DNA of 64,000 nucleotides, taken from positions 1 through 64,000 of the IMG/VR virus record IMGVR_UViG_3300003323_001324. One strand, 5' to 3'. Within the stretch, counting starts at the first letter, position 1. Each line of letters begins with the position of its first letter. A model generated the notes under the pieces. The model ran no database searches. It was not told the DNA's origin and saw only the letters and a program-made list of their open reading frames with translations. The stretch is from a virus. Both the position numbers and the translations under genes were made by a program. Positions 8,682 through 29,454 of the stretch are shown here, one piece after another.

Positions 8682-9326
8682 ATGGATGATGACGGCCCCA
8701 TCGACGGGGACGACGACGATCTCGGCGACGACAGGCCGCCGAAGCCGTCCCGCGGCACCCTGGTGGTCCTGCCCGGCGGGAAGGTCCACGACCCGCGGCC
8801 CGACGTCGGCGCCGACTACGTCGTCGGGCAGTCCAAGGCCAACAATGCCGTGACTCCCGAGGTCCTGGACCCGATGGTCATCGACCGGGCCCTCAAGGAG
8901 CGGGAGGACTTCGTCGAGAAGTCGCGCCTCGTGGAGGCCGTCAAGGACACGAAGAAGGGCGGGAACTTCTCCGTCGTCGAGGACGCCGCCCTCCTGGAGA
9001 TAGCCGAGGAGCTCGCCCACATAAAGTACGAGCGCCGCCGCGCCGCCAAGGACGGGAAGAACACGTCCCCGTTCAGCCTCGGGAGGATAGCGGGGCTGAA
9101 GACCCTCGCCGACCTTCTCCTGAAGCGCCGCGAGGCCGCCCGCGGCGAGCGCATGGACCTGAAGTCCCCGCGCTTCCAGGCCGTCTTCAAGATCTGGATG
9201 GAGTTCTTCTACGAGGCGATGGAGAAGTCCGGGGTTGAGTCCCACATCATCGACCTCGTCTTTCAGCAGATGAAGGCCGACATGGTCAACTGGGAGAGGC
9301 GCATGGACGGCCTCGAGGACACCTGA
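8682..9326 (+). CDS. terS: Probable terminase small subunit
   Basis: Helical 214-aa protein whose stop overlaps the TerL start; call is by position only. Confidence 0.5.
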   Translation: MDDDGPIDGDDDDLGDDRPPKPSRGTLVVLPGGKVHDPRPDVGADYVVGQSKANNAVTPEVLDPMVIDRALKEREDFVEKSRLVEAVKDTKKGGNFSVVEDAALLEIAEELAHIKYERRRAAKDGKNTSPFSLGRIAGLKTLADLLLKRREAARGERMDLKSPRFQAVFKIWMEFFYEAMEKSGVESHIIDLVFQQMKADMVNWERRMDGLEDT

Positions 9327-11305
9327 TGCCCAGCATTGAGAAGGCGGACAAGAGCCACCTGACCGGGGCGGTCGAGGAGATCATCGCCAAGAAGCGGCGC
9401 CAAAAGCACATAGACTCCGGCTCCTCCGACATATACGACCCCGGGTTCCTGAACATCCTGGAGTTCATCGACAGGTACAAGCTGCTCCCGAACGGGCTCT
9501 TCCCCGTCCAGCGCTTCATCCTCAAGATGTACTACAACATCCCCCTGGACTCGGTTCTCCCGCCGAACCCCCAGGACCGGATCGTCATAAGCAAGACTTT
9601 CCGGAAGGCCAAGAGCGTCGAGCTGACCGAGGTCGAGTACCTCAAGTACCTCTACGACAACGGTCGCTGCAACATCGCGGTCCAGGACTTCAAGCCGCGC
9701 CGGGAGCTCATCCTCGTCCTCGGCCGCCGCTCCGGCAAGAGCATGATGTCCTCCATCATCTCGGCCTACGAGCTCTACAAGCTCATCGCCCGCGGACATC
9801 CTCAGGCCTACTACGGGATGCTCCCGACCTCGAAGATCCAGATCATCTGCATCGCGAACGACAAGTCGCAGGCCGAGATCGTCTACGGCGAGATCTCGAA
9901 CCACGTCCAGCAGGTCGACTACTTCCAGAGCGCCCTGAAGCGCGCGACCTCGACCTTCATGCACTTCCGGACCGAGAGCGACAACCAGCGCTTCAAGTCG
10001 GATCCGAAGAAGTCGTCCATCGTCGCCACCTTCAAGAGCTCGAACGCCGGCTCCATCCGCGGCCGCGCCTGCATCGCCTGCATCCTGGACGAGCTCGCGT
10101 TCTTCATCCACGAGGGGAAGGGCTCCGACGGGGAGGTCTACAGGGCCGTCAACCCCGCCCTCAAGCAGTTCTCCCCCAAGGACCCGAAGAACCGCCGCAG
10201 GTCGCTCGGCCCCTCTGAGGGCCGCATGATATCCATCTCCTCGCCGAACGCGAAGGAGGGCCTCTTCTACAAGCTCTACGAGCTCTCGAAGTCCGGCGGC
10301 ATCGCCTCCTCCCAGATGCTGATGATCCAGGCCCCGACCTGGGAGGTCAACCCGACCATGGACGAGGCGGAGTACGAGGTCGAGCGCGCCAAGGACCCGC
10401 GCGCCTTCGAGACCGAGTTCGGGGCCCAGTTCTCGGACCGCGTCCGCGGCTGGATCGAGAACGCCCAGGACCTCCTCGACTGCTGTATCAAGGACCTGAG
10501 GCCCCTCGTGCGCGGCGCTCCCCGGGAGCCTTTCTTCGCCGGGGCGGACCTCGCCATCTCGGGAGACGGGACCTGCATATCCCTCTCCCACATCGTGGAC
10601 GGCCGCATTCAGCTCGGCTATCATGAGACCTGGTGCGCCGGCGTCCCCTGGGAGGAGTCGAACCCCCATCTCTCGAGCCCGCCCGTCCCCTATGCCACGA
10701 CCCTCGCTAGTCAGAAGAGGCTGGACGTCGACGAGATCGTCGACTGGTTCTACGCCCTGACGAGGCGCTTCTACATAGTCGGGGGTCTCCTCGACCAGGC
10801 CTTCGGCGTCATCTTCGAGCAGAAGCTGCACAAGAAGGGCCTTACGCAGTTCGAGTGCCGGCGCTTCAGCACCTCCGACAGCTCGGACACCTACCAGAAC
10901 GCCAAGATGCTCATGTTCATGGGGCAGCTCGGCATCTACGACTACCCCGTTCCGGCGGCCGACGAGGAGTCCCTCCTCACGACCGCCCGTCACTCGCCCC
11001 ACATCGAGGAGCTCCTCGAGCTCCAGGCCACCTCGGGCGGCAAGAACATCGTCATCGTCACGAAGCCGAACATCATCGGCAAGAAGGACGACTTTTCCGA
11101 CAGCCTGGTCCGGAGCCTCTCTCTGGCGGCGGACTACGTGAAGGCGAACCCGGCCGTCCTGGAGCTCTCCAAGGTGTCGGCCGGCCTCGCCCCTCCTCGC
11201 CGTCCGGTCGCCCCGAGCCCCTACACGCAGCGCCTCCAGAAGATCCGGATGCACGGCCCTCCCCCGAAGGAGAGGCGGATCCCCGCCTCCATGCGCCGTA
11301 GGTAG
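9326..11305 (+). CDS. terL: Terminase large subunit
   Basis: Walker A LGRRSGKS, Walker B CILDE, motif III ISSP, nuclease GADLAISGD, KDDFSDS. Confidence 0.93.
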   Translation: MPSIEKADKSHLTGAVEEIIAKKRRQKHIDSGSSDIYDPGFLNILEFIDRYKLLPNGLFPVQRFILKMYYNIPLDSVLPPNPQDRIVISKTFRKAKSVELTEVEYLKYLYDNGRCNIAVQDFKPRRELILVLGRRSGKSMMSSIISAYELYKLIARGHPQAYYGMLPTSKIQIICIANDKSQAEIVYGEISNHVQQVDYFQSALKRATSTFMHFRTESDNQRFKSDPKKSSIVATFKSSNAGSIRGRACIACILDELAFFIHEGKGSDGEVYRAVNPALKQFSPKDPKNRRRSLGPSEGRMISISSPNAKEGLFYKLYELSKSGGIASSQMLMIQAPTWEVNPTMDEAEYEVERAKDPRAFETEFGAQFSDRVRGWIENAQDLLDCCIKDLRPLVRGAPREPFFAGADLAISGDGTCISLSHIVDGRIQLGYHETWCAGVPWEESNPHLSSPPVPYATTLASQKRLDVDEIVDWFYALTRRFYIVGGLLDQAFGVIFEQKLHKKGLTQFECRRFSTSDSSDTYQNAKMLMFMGQLGIYDYPVPAADEESLLTTARHSPHIEELLELQATSGGKNIVIVTKPNIIGKKDDFSDSLVRSLSLAADYVKANPAVLELSKVSAGLAPPRRPVAPSPYTQRLQKIRMHGPPPKERRIPASMRRR

Positions 11306-19484: not shown

Positions 19485-21047
19485 ATGGCCTTCCGACGTA
19501 CTGCCAACGCGCTTGTCTCCAAGAACGTCATCGACTTCGACGAGTGGATGGACGAGATGCGCCAGCAGCACGAGGGCGCGGTCTCCAAGGACCACGTCGG
19601 GAGGGTCGCGAAGGAGGTCCTTCGGAAGTGCGACCCCAAGCAGTACCTGCTGTCGCACGCGACCATCGTGGCCTCGGTCGACACCTACAACCCGAAGGGC
19701 GCGGTAACCGGGAAGCGGATGGAGCGGGGCGTCCAGATCGACGTCCGCCACCCCGACTTCCGCGTGAAGCCCGCCTGCCAGGAGATCATCAACAACAACG
19801 GCGACGCCTGGGAGCGCTCGCTGCTGCTGACGACCTACCGGACCTTCATCGGCGCCCCGAACTACCTGGAGCACATCCAGATCCCCGAGCTGTCGAAGGG
19901 CTTCATCGTCGACGCCATCGCCCGCGACCTGGGCGAGACCTGCTACATCGACATCCTCGTCGCGACGGACCGGAAGCACCAGATCCTCGTCCGCGACATC
20001 ATGGCCGGCAACATCAAGGCCATGTCGATGGGCTGCATCAGCCTCTTCACGATCTGCAACAAGTGCGGGAACGTCGCCTCCGACGACACCCAGCTCTGCC
20101 CCTGCATCATGTACGACGGCAAGGGCAACAAGTTCGCGGACGACGACGGCGTGGAGCATCGCCTCGGCGAGCTCATCGGCCACGTCTCCGTCCCGAACAG
20201 CAACACCTTCATCGAGGCGTCCTGGGTCCGCAACCCCGCCTTCGCCGGCGCCGAGCGCCGTAACTTCCTCAACGAGGACATGTCGTCCTCCGTCGCCTTC
20301 TCGGACGCGCTGTCCCGCGGCGAGCAGGTCTCCATCCGCCGGTCCATGGACCCGCTCCCGATGGGGAACGCCAAGGCCGCCTCCACGAGGGTCGCCGAGG
20401 GCCAGGACCAGGGCGGCCAGGGTCAGTCCCAGGCCCCGTCCGACGACGCCGAGGGCGACTCCGGCGATGCCATGGACGACGCGGCGTCCGAGAAGGACTC
20501 CCCGCCCCCTCCTCCCGCCCCCGAGCCCGACTCGGGCGAGAAGATCCAGAAGATGGTCGACCAGGCCCAGGAGATGCTCATGGAGGGCATCGTGAAGGGC
20601 CTCGCGGACAAGCTCGCCCCGAAGCCCGACGACGTCCCGGCGGCGACCCCGTCGTTCGAGGACGCCAACCTGAACGAGACCCTCCTGACCGGCTCCTCCC
20701 GCTGGTCCTCCGAGCTCCGCCGCAAGTTCGCCGGCAACGACTCGCTCGTCGCCTGGTCGCTGCGCGTGGCCTCCCTCGTCCGCAAGGGCCGCGCCGCCGT
20801 CCGCGCCGCCGGCCTCACGCCGCGCGACCTCGTAGTCTTTTCATGGATTGACGACACCGTCAAGTCCGCGGCGAAGCCCGCGGCCATGTACCAGGCAGCG
20901 ATGAGAGCAGGCGCCTCCTCAGACTTCCCCAGCGAGCGGTCCTACGTCGCCGCGTGCGGGGCGAGGCTCGGCCGCAGGCTCACCGCGGCCGACCAGACTT
21001 TCTTCGCTAGGATCGGCAGGATCGCCTCTGCTTCCTGCAGTATTTAA
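19485..21047 (+). CDS. Prohead (head maturation) protease with a C-terminal extension
   Basis: INNNGDAW, NYLEH, MSMGC with CxxC insert, FIEASWVRNPAF; upstream of scaffold and MCP. Confidence 0.75.
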   Translation: MAFRRTANALVSKNVIDFDEWMDEMRQQHEGAVSKDHVGRVAKEVLRKCDPKQYLLSHATIVASVDTYNPKGAVTGKRMERGVQIDVRHPDFRVKPACQEIINNNGDAWERSLLLTTYRTFIGAPNYLEHIQIPELSKGFIVDAIARDLGETCYIDILVATDRKHQILVRDIMAGNIKAMSMGCISLFTICNKCGNVASDDTQLCPCIMYDGKGNKFADDDGVEHRLGELIGHVSVPNSNTFIEASWVRNPAFAGAERRNFLNEDMSSSVAFSDALSRGEQVSIRRSMDPLPMGNAKAASTRVAEGQDQGGQGQSQAPSDDAEGDSGDAMDDAASEKDSPPPPPAPEPDSGEKIQKMVDQAQEMLMEGIVKGLADKLAPKPDDVPAATPSFEDANLNETLLTGSSRWSSELRRKFAGNDSLVAWSLRVASLVRKGRAAVRAAGLTPRDLVVFSWIDDTVKSAAKPAAMYQAAMRAGASSDFPSERSYVAACGARLGRRLTAADQTFFARIGRIASASCSI

Positions 21048-23299: not shown

Positions 23300-24202
23300 A
23301 TGAACGCTTCTATGAATCCGTTTGGCGTGCAGGTCGTCGACAACTCCATCAGGGAGTCGATCGTCGACAAGCACATCGGGACCTCGCGCGGCCGTGCACG
23401 CCTCGCAGCCTCGATGATTCAGCCGCTGCGCGAGCGCCGCGACTACTCGTCCGTCGGTCGCAAGACCTTCCTGGTCGAGCAGATCCCGGACGGCGCGCTG
23501 GCGATCTACGACAAGGACCCGAACGTCACGGCGTACGTGATCGGCGAAGAGGGCGAGAGCATCACCGCGGTCATGAAGCCGCGGCGCGTGATCTTCCCGC
23601 TGTTCGAGATCGCGGCCCTGCCGAAGGCCCCGCTGACGCAGATCAAGGAGCGTCGCTACGACCTCCTGAAGCGCATGCAGGACCTGGGCAAGGCTCAGAT
23701 CCAGGCGGCGGAAGACGACCGCGTCTTCTCGATCATGGACGCGATCGCGGTCAACGGCTTCGACGAGCTGGCTGGCGGCACGAACCCGGACATCCCGGTG
23801 GTCGCGCCGATCTCGCCCGCCGTCCTCGCCGACGCGTTCGCCGAGATCGAGTACCACGACCTGCGCGTGGCTCGCGTCTACATGAACGCCCGTGACTACG
23901 CGGACATCCGCAAGTTCGGTCGTGACGTGCTGGACATCGAGTCGCAAGCCTCGCTGTGGAAGACGGGCATGATGGCTACCGGTTGGAACGCGCAGTTCAT
24001 CGTCAGCAGGCTCGTTCCTGCCGGCGTCGTGTACTGCTGCTGCGAGCCGGAGATGTTCGGTCGCATTCCGGTGCGCACCGAGCTCACGGTCCTCTCGGCG
24101 GACAACCCCGAGGAGCGCACAATTGGTTTTTCAATGTTCGAGAATCTGGGCATCGGCGCGTACAACCCGCGCGGTCTCGTCCGGTTGATCGTCACTCGCT
24201 GA
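23300..24202 (+). CDS. Major capsid protein (compact HK97 fold)
   Basis: LAASMIQPLRERRDY, QIQAAEDD, C-terminal IGFSMFENLGIGAYNPRGLVRL; strong RBS; distinct codon usage; followed by a terminator. Confidence 0.88.
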   Translation: MNASMNPFGVQVVDNSIRESIVDKHIGTSRGRARLAASMIQPLRERRDYSSVGRKTFLVEQIPDGALAIYDKDPNVTAYVIGEEGESITAVMKPRRVIFPLFEIAALPKAPLTQIKERRYDLLKRMQDLGKAQIQAAEDDRVFSIMDAIAVNGFDELAGGTNPDIPVVAPISPAVLADAFAEIEYHDLRVARVYMNARDYADIRKFGRDVLDIESQASLWKTGMMATGWNAQFIVSRLVPAGVVYCCCEPEMFGRIPVRTELTVLSADNPEERTIGFSMFENLGIGAYNPRGLVRLIVTR

Positions 24203-25045: not shown

Positions 25046-25441
25046 ATGCCGTCCATTGACGAACTTGCCGCCCTCAGGAAGAAGGCCGAAGAAGAGAGAG
25101 CCTCATCCCAGTCCCGGAAAGACGAAGAGAAGGCGGTAGATATCGCACGTTTCCGGAACCTTTATGGTACTTTTCCAGCCCGTCTCGAGGACTTTGCCCG
25201 GAGATGCAAAGTTAAGGGTCTTCGAGCTCGCTGGGATCCCAATAATATGCTTTCTGTGTCCGCTGATGGAGCGCGCTTGACCTTCAGTCTGTCCTGGTCT
25301 GGCATCCCTGGGCAGTGTGGATTTGAAGTGAAGGACTCCGTCGCTAGGAATAGTCGTCGCCAACGTGTCGCCATCGACGTACTTGAGGACGATTCGAAGC
25401 TCGAGGAGTTCTTGGTCGGGGTCTTAGAGCTCTACCTGTGA
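25046..25441 (+). CDS. Hypothetical protein (low-GC)
   Basis: GTAACTA motif upstream; stop overlaps the next start. Confidence 0.6.
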   Translation: MPSIDELAALRKKAEEERASSQSRKDEEKAVDIARFRNLYGTFPARLEDFARRCKVKGLRARWDPNNMLSVSADGARLTFSLSWSGIPGQCGFEVKDSVARNSRRQRVAIDVLEDDSKLEEFLVGVLELYL

Positions 25442-26346
25442 TCTCTCCCGTGATCCCCGTCCACTTCGATATGGAGACGCAGGATCCGGACGACGTGATG
25501 ACGCTCGCCCTCCTGGCGACTCATCCGCGCGTTCGCCTCGTCGGCGTCACGCTCACTCCGGGCGGACGGGAGCAGCACGACCTCGTCCGGCACGTCCTGG
25601 GCCTTCTCGGCCGCCCCGACGTCCCCGTCGGCTCCGGCGACCCCGCGAGGACGAAGCCCGCGGTTTCGGACTTCCACTATTTCTGGCTCGGACGCCCACC
25701 AGCCTCCGAGGGTTACTTCCCCTCCGCCCTGCAGGTCCTCCATGAGGTCCTCGGCGACTACCCCGACGCCGTCCTCCTCACCGGCGGACCGTTAAAGAAC
25801 TTCCGGGTTCGCGACTTCCCGGACTTCTTCCGGACCTGGGTCGGCCAGGGAGGGTTCGCCGGGGACTCCGTCGTCCCTCCCGAGCACCGCCTCCCGAAGT
25901 TCGCCGGGCGCGAGACCTGCCCGTCCTTCAACCCTAACGGGGATGTGAAGGCCTTCCTCGGCATGCTCTCGGAGCCTCGCCTCCACGAGCGCGTTCTCGT
26001 CTCCAAGAACGTCTGCCACGGCGTTGCCTGGGACCGGGACTTCCACGAGCGCGTGAAGGCCCTCCCTCGGCGGACGGCGGGCCTCGAGCTTGTCCTCGGA
26101 GGGATGGAGCTCTACCTCCAGAAGAACCCCCTGGGGAAGCTCCTGCACGACCCTCTCGCCGCTTGCGTGGCCATCGACCGCTCCGTCTGCGGGCTCGCGC
26201 GCGTGGAGGCCTACCGCGAGAAGGGCGAGTGGGGCTCCCGCGTCCCCGAGCTCCCTTCCCTCGGCGACCCCGACGGCGGCGCCAACGCCTGGATAACGAC
26301 CTCCGTCGACCGGGAGCGCTTCTTCTCCGTCCTCACGGAGTGCTGA
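25438..26346 (+). CDS. Nucleoside hydrolase (IU-NH family)
   Basis: DMETQDPDD, LTGGPL.N, SFN, LHDPLAA. Confidence 0.85.
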   Translation: MISPVIPVHFDMETQDPDDVMTLALLATHPRVRLVGVTLTPGGREQHDLVRHVLGLLGRPDVPVGSGDPARTKPAVSDFHYFWLGRPPASEGYFPSALQVLHEVLGDYPDAVLLTGGPLKNFRVRDFPDFFRTWVGQGGFAGDSVVPPEHRLPKFAGRETCPSFNPNGDVKAFLGMLSEPRLHERVLVSKNVCHGVAWDRDFHERVKALPRRTAGLELVLGGMELYLQKNPLGKLLHDPLAACVAIDRSVCGLARVEAYREKGEWGSRVPELPSLGDPDGGANAWITTSVDRERFFSVLTEC

Positions 26347-28338: not shown

Positions 28339-29454
28339 ATGTCACGCAAGTTCAAGAAGCTCGTGCGCTCTGTCTCCGAGAAGTCCGGCGTCTCCCACGC
28401 CGGGGCCGTCAACCTCCTTCGCCGCGGGAACCCCGCCCCTGTCAGGGCGCTCGACCCCGTCCTCATCCGCTCGGGCGCGAAGGCCCTCGCCGGGAAGCAC
28501 ACGCACGAGGCCGGCGTCGTCTCCGCCGTCCTCGACGACGGGGACGTCATGGTCACCCCGGCCGAGCCCCGGTCCACGCAGGGCGGCATCTCCTTCTGGA
28601 GGCACGAGGAGCCCGCCCGCTACTCGGCCGCGGACGTCCGGCACTTTCCCCTCAAGAAGGGGGAGAGGTTCGCCCGGTTCGTGGAGGACGTGTTCGACGT
28701 CCGCCTTTGCTTCTCCCAGTCCTCGGACGAGCCCGTCCTCTACGGGCACAACCGTCCGGCCATGTACGAGAATGGGACTCCTCTCCACTATGTGATCATG
28801 GATAAGCCCGTCGGGAAGACGTCGTACGTGATCGGCGAAGAGGGCGAGAGCATCCTCGCGATAGCGAAGCCGCGCCGTGTTATCATCCCCCTCTGGAAGA
28901 CCTCGGCGGACTTTCTCGACAATGATAGGATAGTCGGCTTCGACGCGGTGAAGATCCGCCGCGCTGTCCGCGATCGGATGCTCGCCCTCATCGACGCCTC
29001 GAACTTCGTGCACGACCTGCTCGCGGCCGGCCCCGACTGCGGCCCGCGGGGCGAGCCTGTCCACCTCTCCTCCCCTCCGGACGGGGCCGAATGGTACGTC
29101 GCCGACCTCGACGACCACCTCTCCCCGGACTGCGGTATGCTCCTCGACGCTCCTCCGCTTCACTCGCCGTTCCGCTACGGATGCGGTCGCGGGAAGATCG
29201 GGAGGTGGGTGTCCGGCCCGACCTTCTCCGGCCTCTATCTCTGCGAGGGCGAGACCTCGGTCGTCTCCCCGAGGACATGCCGGGCCTGCCGCTCTCCCCT
29301 CCGTCCGGAGAACCTCCGGATTGCGGACGGTTGCCCGTGTAACTCCCCGCGCGGGGTGAACCACGGCCTCGTGCCGACGGACACCTGCACCTGCCCGGAG
29401 TGCGATCCTGCGCAGACCGGGAGCACTCGCTATTCCGCCGTCAGCGGACCCTGA
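28339..29454 (+). CDS. Mosaic protein: basic N-terminal helix domain, MCP-derived segment, C-terminal Cys cluster
   Basis: SYVIGEEGESILAIAKPRRVIIPL aligns with MCP AYVIGEEGESITAVMKPRRVIFPL; C-terminal CRAC..CPC..CTCPEC. Confidence 0.75.
   Translation: MSRKFKKLVRSVSEKSGVSHAGAVNLLRRGNPAPVRALDPVLIRSGAKALAGKHTHEAGVVSAVLDDGDVMVTPAEPRSTQGGISFWRHEEPARYSAADVRHFPLKKGERFARFVEDVFDVRLCFSQSSDEPVLYGHNRPAMYENGTPLHYVIMDKPVGKTSYVIGEEGESILAIAKPRRVIIPLWKTSADFLDNDRIVGFDAVKIRRAVRDRMLALIDASNFVHDLLAAGPDCGPRGEPVHLSSPPDGAEWYVADLDDHLSPDCGMLLDAPPLHSPFRYGCGRGKIGRWVSGPTFSGLYLCEGETSVVSPRTCRACRSPLRPENLRIADGCPCNSPRGVNHGLVPTDTCTCPECDPAQTGSTRYSAVSGP

Follow-up and report, generated by a model that had tools for sequence, protein, structure and literature searches.

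A probable paralogue of the major capsid protein in a huge phage, with a short tract that appears to have been converted from the capsid gene

The window analysed here comprises the first 64 kb of a 157,577-bp IMG/VR virus record (IMGVR_UViG_3300003323_001324), for which CheckV estimates a completeness of 37%; a record of this length at that completeness implies a huge phage as its source. Within the window, an open reading frame (ORF) of 371 amino acids at 28339–29454, hereafter P0001, very probably encodes a complete paralogue of the major capsid protein (hereafter, MCP) of this same phage, one that is under selection and evolves fast, and not a protein into which a piece of the MCP was pasted. 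The 32 nucleotides that P0001 shares exactly with the MCP gene are, with good probability, a recent and lineage-specific patch of gene conversion that passed from the MCP gene to the paralogue, as judged from the pattern of silent sites. A role as an accessory protein of head assembly or DNA packaging is put forward tentatively. For the account as a whole, in which paralogy, conversion and an accessory role in the head all hold, we estimate a probability of roughly 0.4. The parts of the protein and the two copies of the shared tract are as follows.

28339..29454, plus strand: P0001, ORF of 371 amino acids with N-module, SH3/KOW-like barrel, compact HK97-like domain and Cys module
28339..28428, plus strand: N-module, residues 1–30, two basic helices (H3–16, H20–30), helix-turn-helix-like, predicted local distance difference test (pLDDT) >90
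28429..28671, plus strand: small beta-barrel, residues 31–111 (SH3/KOW/Tudor-like), in long forms of the family only
28672..29274, plus strand: compact HK97-like domain, residues 112–312, according to the AF2 model and its structural matches to the HK97 fold
28786..29013, plus strand: MCP-homologous segment, residues 150–225, with the E-loop hairpin, the following strands and the spine helix
28823..28854, plus strand: 32-nt tract identical to the MCP gene, from the second base of codon S162 to I172, at the tip of the E-loop hairpin
29278..29433, plus strand: Cys module, residues 314–365, with seven Cys and one His
23300..24202, plus strand: MCP gene (P0002, 300 amino acids), phrog_2522 with E 2.3e-45, probable donor of the tract
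23532..23563, plus strand: MCP copy of the 32-mer, identical in the sister phage L004

Homology of P0001 to the MCP is evident from two sequence comparisons. BLASTP aligned residues 153–220 with MCP residues 69–148 at 40% identity (E 5e-12), and hhalign, run with the family against 65 MCPs of the clade, returned a probability of 98.3% with an E value of 2.2e-14 over 74 columns. The hhalign alignment spans just residues 150–225 against MCP residues 66–153, with a deletion of 14 residues relative to the MCP. About 75 of the 371 residues can thus be aligned to the MCP by sequence, and the full-length paralogy that characterizes the T4 gp24 type of capsid paralogue is not seen at this level. As a whole, P0001 matched neither the capsid families of Pfam (E ≤ 1) nor PHROGs (E ≤ 0.1), where the phage's own MCP matches phrog_2522 at 2.3e-45, and a sequence profile search of the PDB returned nothing for it. 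Neither P0001, nor its parts, nor 42 relatives received a Pfam or PHROG assignment.

The fold was modelled with AF2 from an alignment of 42 sequences (pLDDT 82 overall and >90 over most of residues 112–312; predicted template modelling score 0.78). This model replaced an earlier one built from 14 sequences (pLDDT 59.7), for which a comparison with BFVD gave gp27 of Bacillus phage G as a weak match at rank 19 (probability 0.87, E 0.097). The model comprises helices at residues 3–16 and 20–30, a barrel at 40–102 and a beta-rich domain at 112–312 that contains a hairpin (162–175) and one long helix (203–220); the Cys-rich tail is unmodelled. Exhaustive structural comparison with VIA returned HK97-fold capsid proteins as the best whole-domain matches of residues 112–312. 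The top match was the MCP of Adephagia (8ec2_A; Z 6.1, root-mean-square deviation (rmsd) 3.7, 128 amino acids), and HK97 gp5 scored similarly (1ohg_A; Z 5.8, rmsd 3.2, 126 amino acids); a gene transfer agent capsid, encapsulins and the capsid of a capsid-forming phage-inducible chromosomal island (cf-PICI; 9gyi_B) were also found. The HK97-fold capsids and encapsulins at the top of the list reach a Z of only 5–6.1 over 125–140 residues, and no A-domain helices are present in the model. We accept the HK97 reading of residues 112–312 because it agrees with the independent sequence homology. According to the model, the domain appears to have kept the E-loop hairpin and spine helix of the MCP, with a much reduced A-domain.

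The segment that the original prediction had described as MCP-derived, and had expected to fall in the E-loop region, does fall on the E-loop hairpin and the first part of the spine helix by hhalign, by the AF2 model and by the HK97-fold matches. The accompanying picture of a mosaic gene with a single copied fragment did not survive, as the whole of residues 112–312 models as HK97-like and the gene belongs to an old and diversified family of paralogues.

About a dozen (~13) close homologues of P0001 were found, all of them metagenomic. Those designated P0003–P0012 are ~300 amino acids long, cover residues 1–311 and are 47–82% identical to P0001, with P0003 the closest (82%); the start MSRKFKKL is kept in all long-form homologues. 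A profile search over 1.84 billion representatives gave 63 hits, which consist of long forms of 384 amino acids, many short forms of 200–260 amino acids, members that have no N-module, and partial MCPs. The distant members number at least 40, again all from metagenomes. Short forms begin with the motif M-x-x-K-R/F-K-K-L-x-R ... G-V/M-S-x-A-G-A-x-N and pass directly into the MCP-like core, the barrel being absent from those of 200–250 amino acids; they match MCPs with an E value of 7e-19, and confidence in the alignment fades past about MCP residue 160. Searches of cultured phages with tblastn returned MCP matches or nothing, and no member of the paralogue family. Two scans of genome contigs found no relative of P0001, a scan of viral contigs with a short form found none either, and a metagenome scan yielded one locus of 3.3 kb. 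The gene for P0003 was assembled from an RNA library, on a 4804-nt contig of run X3 (a soil metatranscriptome), which attests its presence and is not proof of transcription; the same run also holds an MCP contig.

Comparison of the window phage with its sister L004 revealed very different rates in the two genes. The MCPs are 97% identical (dS 0.39, dN 0.028, dN/dS 0.07), and the paralogues are 61% identical (dS 0.93, dN 0.32, dN/dS 0.34). The paralogue ORFs are intact in all relatives, and the paralogue is under purifying selection. The gap in dS between the same two phages, 0.39 for the MCP versus 0.93 for the paralogue, reflects either constrained silent sites in the MCP gene or a different recombination history of the paralogue region.

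The 32-mer cgtacgtgatcggcgaagagggcgagagcatc is present both at 28823–28854 and at 23532–23563, as the original prediction had reported. A repeat search placed it inside an 89-nt stretch of 80% identity (28819–28907 versus 23528–23616), and the match exceeds chance, since the longest repeat expected in 64 kb of random sequence at 67% G+C is calculated to be ~17 nt. By position, the tract corresponds to strand one of the E-loop hairpin together with its acidic tip (GEEGES); within the tip, GEEGE is invariant in 25 MCPs of the clade. Where the two proteins have identical residues, the same codon is used at all ten positions inside the tract, and at 10 of 23 in the remainder of the aligned segment (p = 0.002, one-sided Fisher test). 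The flanking rate taken to the tenth power is 2.4e-4, and the aligned codons outside the tract have a nucleotide identity of just 56%. Drawing the MCP's ten tract codons from the codon usage of the phage has a chance of 2.8e-4, and the shared codons include several that are rare in that usage, namely GAA (2% of Glu), AGC (18% of Ser) and GTG (23% of Val). Flanks that retain protein similarity and differ at silent sites had been described before, and are confirmed by these counts together with the BLASTP alignment.

Orthologous genes allow the change to be polarized. The MCP genes of the window phage and of L004 both carry the exact 32-mer. The L004 paralogue reads TTC GTC GTC TCT GAG GAC GGC GAG TCC ATA at the tract position, and that of a further relative, L084, is similar; these two differ from the tract at 10–11 of 30 bases and encode Ser with TCN (TCC in L004), not AGC. 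Between the MCP and the paralogue of L004 the longest exact match is 9 nt. Other MCPs of the clade lie 1–12 mismatches from the 32-mer, mostly silent, and several are only 1–3 away; as silent sites within the tract are free to vary among MCP genes, no nucleotide-level element is conserved there. Because the tract is conserved in the MCP of the sister phage and in other MCPs, and the orthologous paralogues differ from it, the direction of conversion would be from the MCP gene, 5.3 kb upstream, to the paralogue, which makes P0001 the recipient. The earlier suggestion of a gene-conversion donor for the MCP is therefore upheld as regards conversion, by the silent-site pattern, and reversed as regards the donor role.

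The wider family offers a similar indication. Over a 25-residue E-loop segment, the number of MCP-like residues is 23 in P0004, 20 in P0001, 18 in P0006, 17 in P0003 and 13 in P0005, an order that at the protein level is discordant with the tree of the paralogue family. As far as the tract, the window and the contigs of run X3 (the run that contains the P0003 gene) agree at ~90%, and over 28823–28998 the contigs diverge sharply. These patterns point to sporadic, lineage-specific conversion of the E-loop segment from the conserved MCP.

Both ends of the protein are as the original prediction described them, with a basic helical N-terminus and a cluster of Cys at the C-terminus. The N-module is nearly invariant across the family, and no other part of the protein is as well conserved (dN/dS 0.14). 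The same 35 residues head P0104 (396 amino acids), P0091 (420 amino acids) and P0095/P0133, which are proteins of other huge phages that resemble the ATPase of the terminase large subunit (TerL); P0104, P0091 and P0095 match phrog_2 with E values from 5e-12 to 3e-6. P0104 sits on a contig of 475,623 bp, and its residues 39–335 are 44% identical to the TerL of the window phage (9326–11305), the N-terminus of which is unrelated to the N-module. All four of the N-module-bearing proteins are 370–420 amino acids long and cannot be aligned beyond the ATPase region of the 659 amino acid window TerL; they may be either split genuine terminases or ATPase-only paralogues. A viral-contig scan with P0104 returned ordinary TerLs only, none with the N-module. 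Since the module is basic and helix-turn-helix-like in the model, we infer that it may bind DNA; single members gave sub-threshold helix-turn-helix matches to LacI (0.056), HTH_58 (0.078) and HxlR (0.098).

The Cys module follows the pattern CRxC...ADGCPCNSPRGVNHGLVP...CTCxxCDPxQTGSxR and presumably binds zinc. It is 70–85% identical to its counterparts in other proteins. Modules of 52–55 amino acids with 60–85% identity to one another occur in ~55 otherwise unrelated metagenomic proteins (among P0014–P0071), at N-terminal, internal or C-terminal positions, with the wider consensus CRxCG...ADGCPCNSPRG[VI]NHGLVP...CTCxxCDPxQTGSxR. No Pfam family corresponds to the module and ESM Atlas gave nothing usable for it. 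Within the paralogue family it is found only in P0001 and the partial P0006, not in P0003 or the others of P0003–P0012, and it is present as a single copy in the 157-kb record. By this distribution in sequences it is a separately acquired mobile domain.

The intervening barrel has ribosomal protein uL24 as its top Foldseek match (E 5.7e-3, probability 1.00), and VIA aligns it with the KOW domains of Spt5/NusG at Z 5.0–5.7; Tudor and SH3 domains score equally. The KOW family of Pfam was not matched, and the SH3/KOW leads from ESM Atlas for residues 1–150 were weak.

P0001 is flanked by phage head genes and other phage genes, in a region that is collinear with the sister phage. The other features of the window that bear on it are listed here.

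9326..11305, plus strand: TerL of the window phage, 659 amino acids, phrog_2 with E 6.5e-22, without the N-module
19485–21047: protease-like gene, upstream of the MCP gene and P0001
21090–22370 and 22577–23272: two ORFs with no assignment, between the protease-like gene and the MCP gene
25438–26346, plus strand: gene resembling inosine-uridine nucleoside hydrolase (Pfam PF01156, E 2.4e-11), between the MCP gene and P0001
28148..28338, plus strand: conserved leader of ~190 nt directly 5' of P0001, 78% column identity among the window phage, L004 and L084

P0001 lies on the same strand as the protease-like gene, the two unassigned ORFs and the MCP gene, 4.1 kb downstream of that group. The stretch from 24.3 to 28.1 kb, which separates the MCP gene from P0001 and includes the nucleoside-hydrolase-like gene, is not present in L004. 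No functional context was obtained when the neighbouring ORFs were scanned against PHROGs, and neither a promoter and terminator scan nor a count of the motif GTACGCT around the gene was informative. In the comparison of three phages the leader is better conserved than the coding sequence of P0001. From three sequences only, RNAalifold predicts a consensus fold of -64 kcal/mol for it, in which seven pairs show changes at both positions and a helix takes in the start codon; no Rfam family matches it.

The MCP itself is 75% identical to that of LR745208.1, a 485-kb uncultured phage, 44% identical to a protein of Tunturiibacter phage Tunturi_5 and 36% identical to gp27 of Bacillus phage G. Elsewhere in the same record, outside the window at 133348–133719 (plus strand), an ORF of 124 amino acids (P0137) resembles a stretch of the MCP A-domain, residues 190–226 (43% identity, E 6e-9; profile E 5.6e-8). 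Its two homologues are each 124 amino acids long and 79% and 76% identical to it, and by sequence it is a second conserved, MCP-derived mini gene in this phage lineage. The part of the MCP that it resembles is roughly the one that the paralogue at 28339–29454 lacks.

Several observations weigh against the favoured account. The structural Z scores of ~6 are middling by VIA's own calibration. Most of the A-domain, the part of an MCP that provides contacts about the capsomer axis, is absent from the model, where a single long helix is found; regular incorporation of P0001 into hexamers or pentamers is therefore unlikely. No profile marks the N-module as a DNA-binding helix-turn-helix, the Pfam matches being those of single members below threshold. 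The paralogue changes ~11 times faster than the MCP (dN 0.32 versus 0.028), its family swaps accessory domains, and its locus is variable and rearranged, with the neighbouring genes ordered differently in L004. The family was not found in LR745208.1. In four of five large relatives, three of them complete, a profile of the short form (A2) that matched P0001 in its own record detected nothing but the MCP. Fast change, a variable locus, patchy distribution and domain swapping are together commoner among accessory or conflict genes than among core structural ones. DNA of just two other paralogues (L004 and L084) is available, and the timing and recurrence of conversion depend in part on protein-level patterns.

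The fifth relative searched with A2, a complete phage of 512 kb (L104; IMGVR_UViG_3300028654_000001), is the only one to hold extra mini-MCP-like ORFs, and these have a different shared terminal motif. They stand in tandem at L104:854–1429 and L104:1453–1989, ~300 kb from the MCP gene. With two unrelated small neighbouring ORFs (L104:257–643 and 1999–2361) they share the C-terminal motif RP[NT]RFERE[EPD]VI or RSRFDRDDVI, which looks like a common tag.

As an accessory of head assembly or packaging, P0001 would act through two surfaces. The MCP-type face formed by the E-loop and P-domain would dock on the MCP, on procapsids, or on a partner that binds the invariant acidic tip GEEGE, and the basic N-module would, together with the barrel, hold DNA or the packaging machinery. 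Such a need for an MCP-like E-loop would make this loop the best-conserved MCP-like stretch of the protein, and would allow conversion from the MCP to be tolerated.

It is somewhat less probable, and on balance doubtful, that P0001 is a protein of conflict. The MCP-like domain would then be a decoy or blocker for host capsid sensors, or a poison of head assembly in competing related phages; the N-module proteins with a TerL ATPase elsewhere among huge phages would play the corresponding part towards terminase sensors, and conversion from the MCP would keep the mimic matched to its target. A decoy and a dominant-negative inhibitor of competing phages had both been put forward in the original prediction, and as ideas they are speculative. 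Fast evolution under selection, patchy distribution, a variable region and domain shuffling are all in keeping with this, and the E-loop motif that is invariant in the 25 clade MCPs is exactly what the mimic would retain. Both MCP and TerL are established triggers of bacterial STAND sensors, with Avs7 and Dsr1 sensing the MCP and Avs1–3 the terminase (PMC13581612). However, Avs-type sensors are activated by binding the fold (PMC13581612), so that a mimic must bind without activating. Nor was any family of defence or anti-defence matched in Pfam or PHROGs; the most conserved part of the protein is the N-module and not the surface of the presumed mimic; and a poison of assembly would also strike the phage's own, nearly identical MCP. 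The literature search found neither a described phage-encoded capsid decoy nor any phage-encoded mimic of the targets of MCP and terminase sensors, and we know of none.

Conversion, too, has an alternative, which we regard as improbable: the identity could be ancestry retained under purifying selection and codon bias, or a shared nucleotide-level element. Both families conserve the peptide YVIGEEGE, and P0003, P0004 and P0006, the nearest relatives by protein, also have AYVIGEEGE. Codon bias is strong, such that two independent draws would coincide at every one of the ten codons with a probability of 0.022. Against retained ancestry stand the shared rare codons and the contrast in codon use inside and outside the tract, the 10–11 differences and TCN serines of the L004 and L084 paralogues, and the low nucleotide identity of the aligned codons beyond the tract; the variation of MCP genes at the silent sites of the tract argues in turn against a shared element.

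A broader version of the conflict idea is less probable still. Huge phages of the phage G type would fuse cut-down copies of their MCP core and TerL ATPase to a common basic N-module as self-mimics, with the MCP mimic updated by conversion. The products may be decoys or blockers for receptors that sense the MCP and terminase folds, or may be an HK97-fold replacement of the small terminase.

Taken by itself, the idea of a small-terminase (TerS) analogue is unlikely. It envisages an HK97-like ring with N-terminal DNA-binding modules on its rim, which would find the packaging start for a TerL that has no module of its own. Consistent with it, the N-module is found on the TerL-like proteins of other huge phages and not on the window TerL, the short forms of 200–250 amino acids have a length in the range usual for small terminases, and no recognizable TerS was found beside the TerL gene, where the ORF at 8682–9326 has no PHROG match. 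However, P0001 lies 17 kb from the TerL gene, no TerS family of Pfam or PHROGs matches it or the 42 members, several family members have no N-module at all, and the four of five large relatives in which the short-form profile shows no member, three of them complete, must yet package DNA.

Chimeric assembly and a decaying pseudogene, which the original prediction had named as the outcomes that would overturn it, were rejected and are very improbable. The record is a metagenome assembly estimated to be 37% complete, and none of the runs contained a read or contig that equals the window over the tract, X1 and X2 matching exactly just in short stretches at other places in the gene. However, the sequence to either side of the tract is of paralogue type and collinear with the independent assemblies of L004, L084 and the 4804-nt X3 contig that spans the site, whereas a chimeric join would switch context; a 32-nt repeat would normally fall below the read and k-mer lengths of metagenome assembly; and the ORFs are intact in all relatives with dN/dS below 1 (0.34).

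Capsid proteins with a second, MCP-derived partner have precedents. The vertex protein gp24 of T4 is a paralogue of the major capsid protein gp23 and forms the pentons. Like P0001, it is the product of a second HK97-fold gene that derives from the phage's own MCP and is encoded in the head module. However, gp24 is MCP-like over its full length and builds pentons, whereas P0001 has a reduced A-domain and a foreign N-terminus; it evolves fast, is missing from most relatives, and has other domains in place of the N-arm region. Satellites also encode MCP homologues, such as Ccm of SaPIbov5 and the capsid proteins of capsid-forming PICIs, which redirect the capsid assembly of the helper. These (for cf-PICI, PDB 9gyi) resemble P0001 as MCP homologues besides the main shell protein that could co-assemble or interfere with a related MCP. 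They are, however, encoded by the satellite against its helper, whereas P0001 belongs to the phage's own genome, near its own MCP gene, and exchanges sequence with it. Head proteins of the phage G type (phrog_2522; Bacillus phage G gp27) share the homologous segment of E-loop and spine helix, but P0001 as a whole has no PHROG or Pfam capsid match.

For the N-terminus, two kinds of domain are comparable. Small terminases have N-terminal helix-turn-helix domains, and the scaffolding protein of P22 has a basic helix-turn-helix domain that binds the coat; in each case, as here, a short basic module of two helices stands at the end of a head or packaging protein. No sequence relationship to either is detectable; the module of P0001 is shared with the TerL-like proteins. 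Immune systems that sense the MCP or terminase (Avs7/Dsr1, Avs1–3; also CapRel and Lit, named in the original prediction) recognize the same folds, MCP and TerL, that are here fused to the N-module, but they are sensors of the host, whereas P0001 is encoded by the phage. Neither the architecture of P0001, nor its link to terminase-like proteins, nor the conversion patch was found described in the literature search.

Paralogues of the MCP and hijackers homologous to it are thus already known, as T4 gp24 and satellite Ccm illustrate. No description was found of a family that pairs a shrunken HK97 domain with an N-terminus that looks suited to binding nucleic acid and is common to terminase-like proteins. 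Two uncharacterized mobile protein modules are brought out, the N-module and the 52-residue Cys module, and the tract would offer a clean natural example of short-tract gene conversion from a phage structural gene to its paralogue. Should P0001 serve as a self-mimic in conflicts, no capsid decoy encoded by a phage would precede it. Should it dock on capsids as proposed, very large capsids, the assembly of which is poorly understood, would have a minor component for the head or for packaging that is of a new type.

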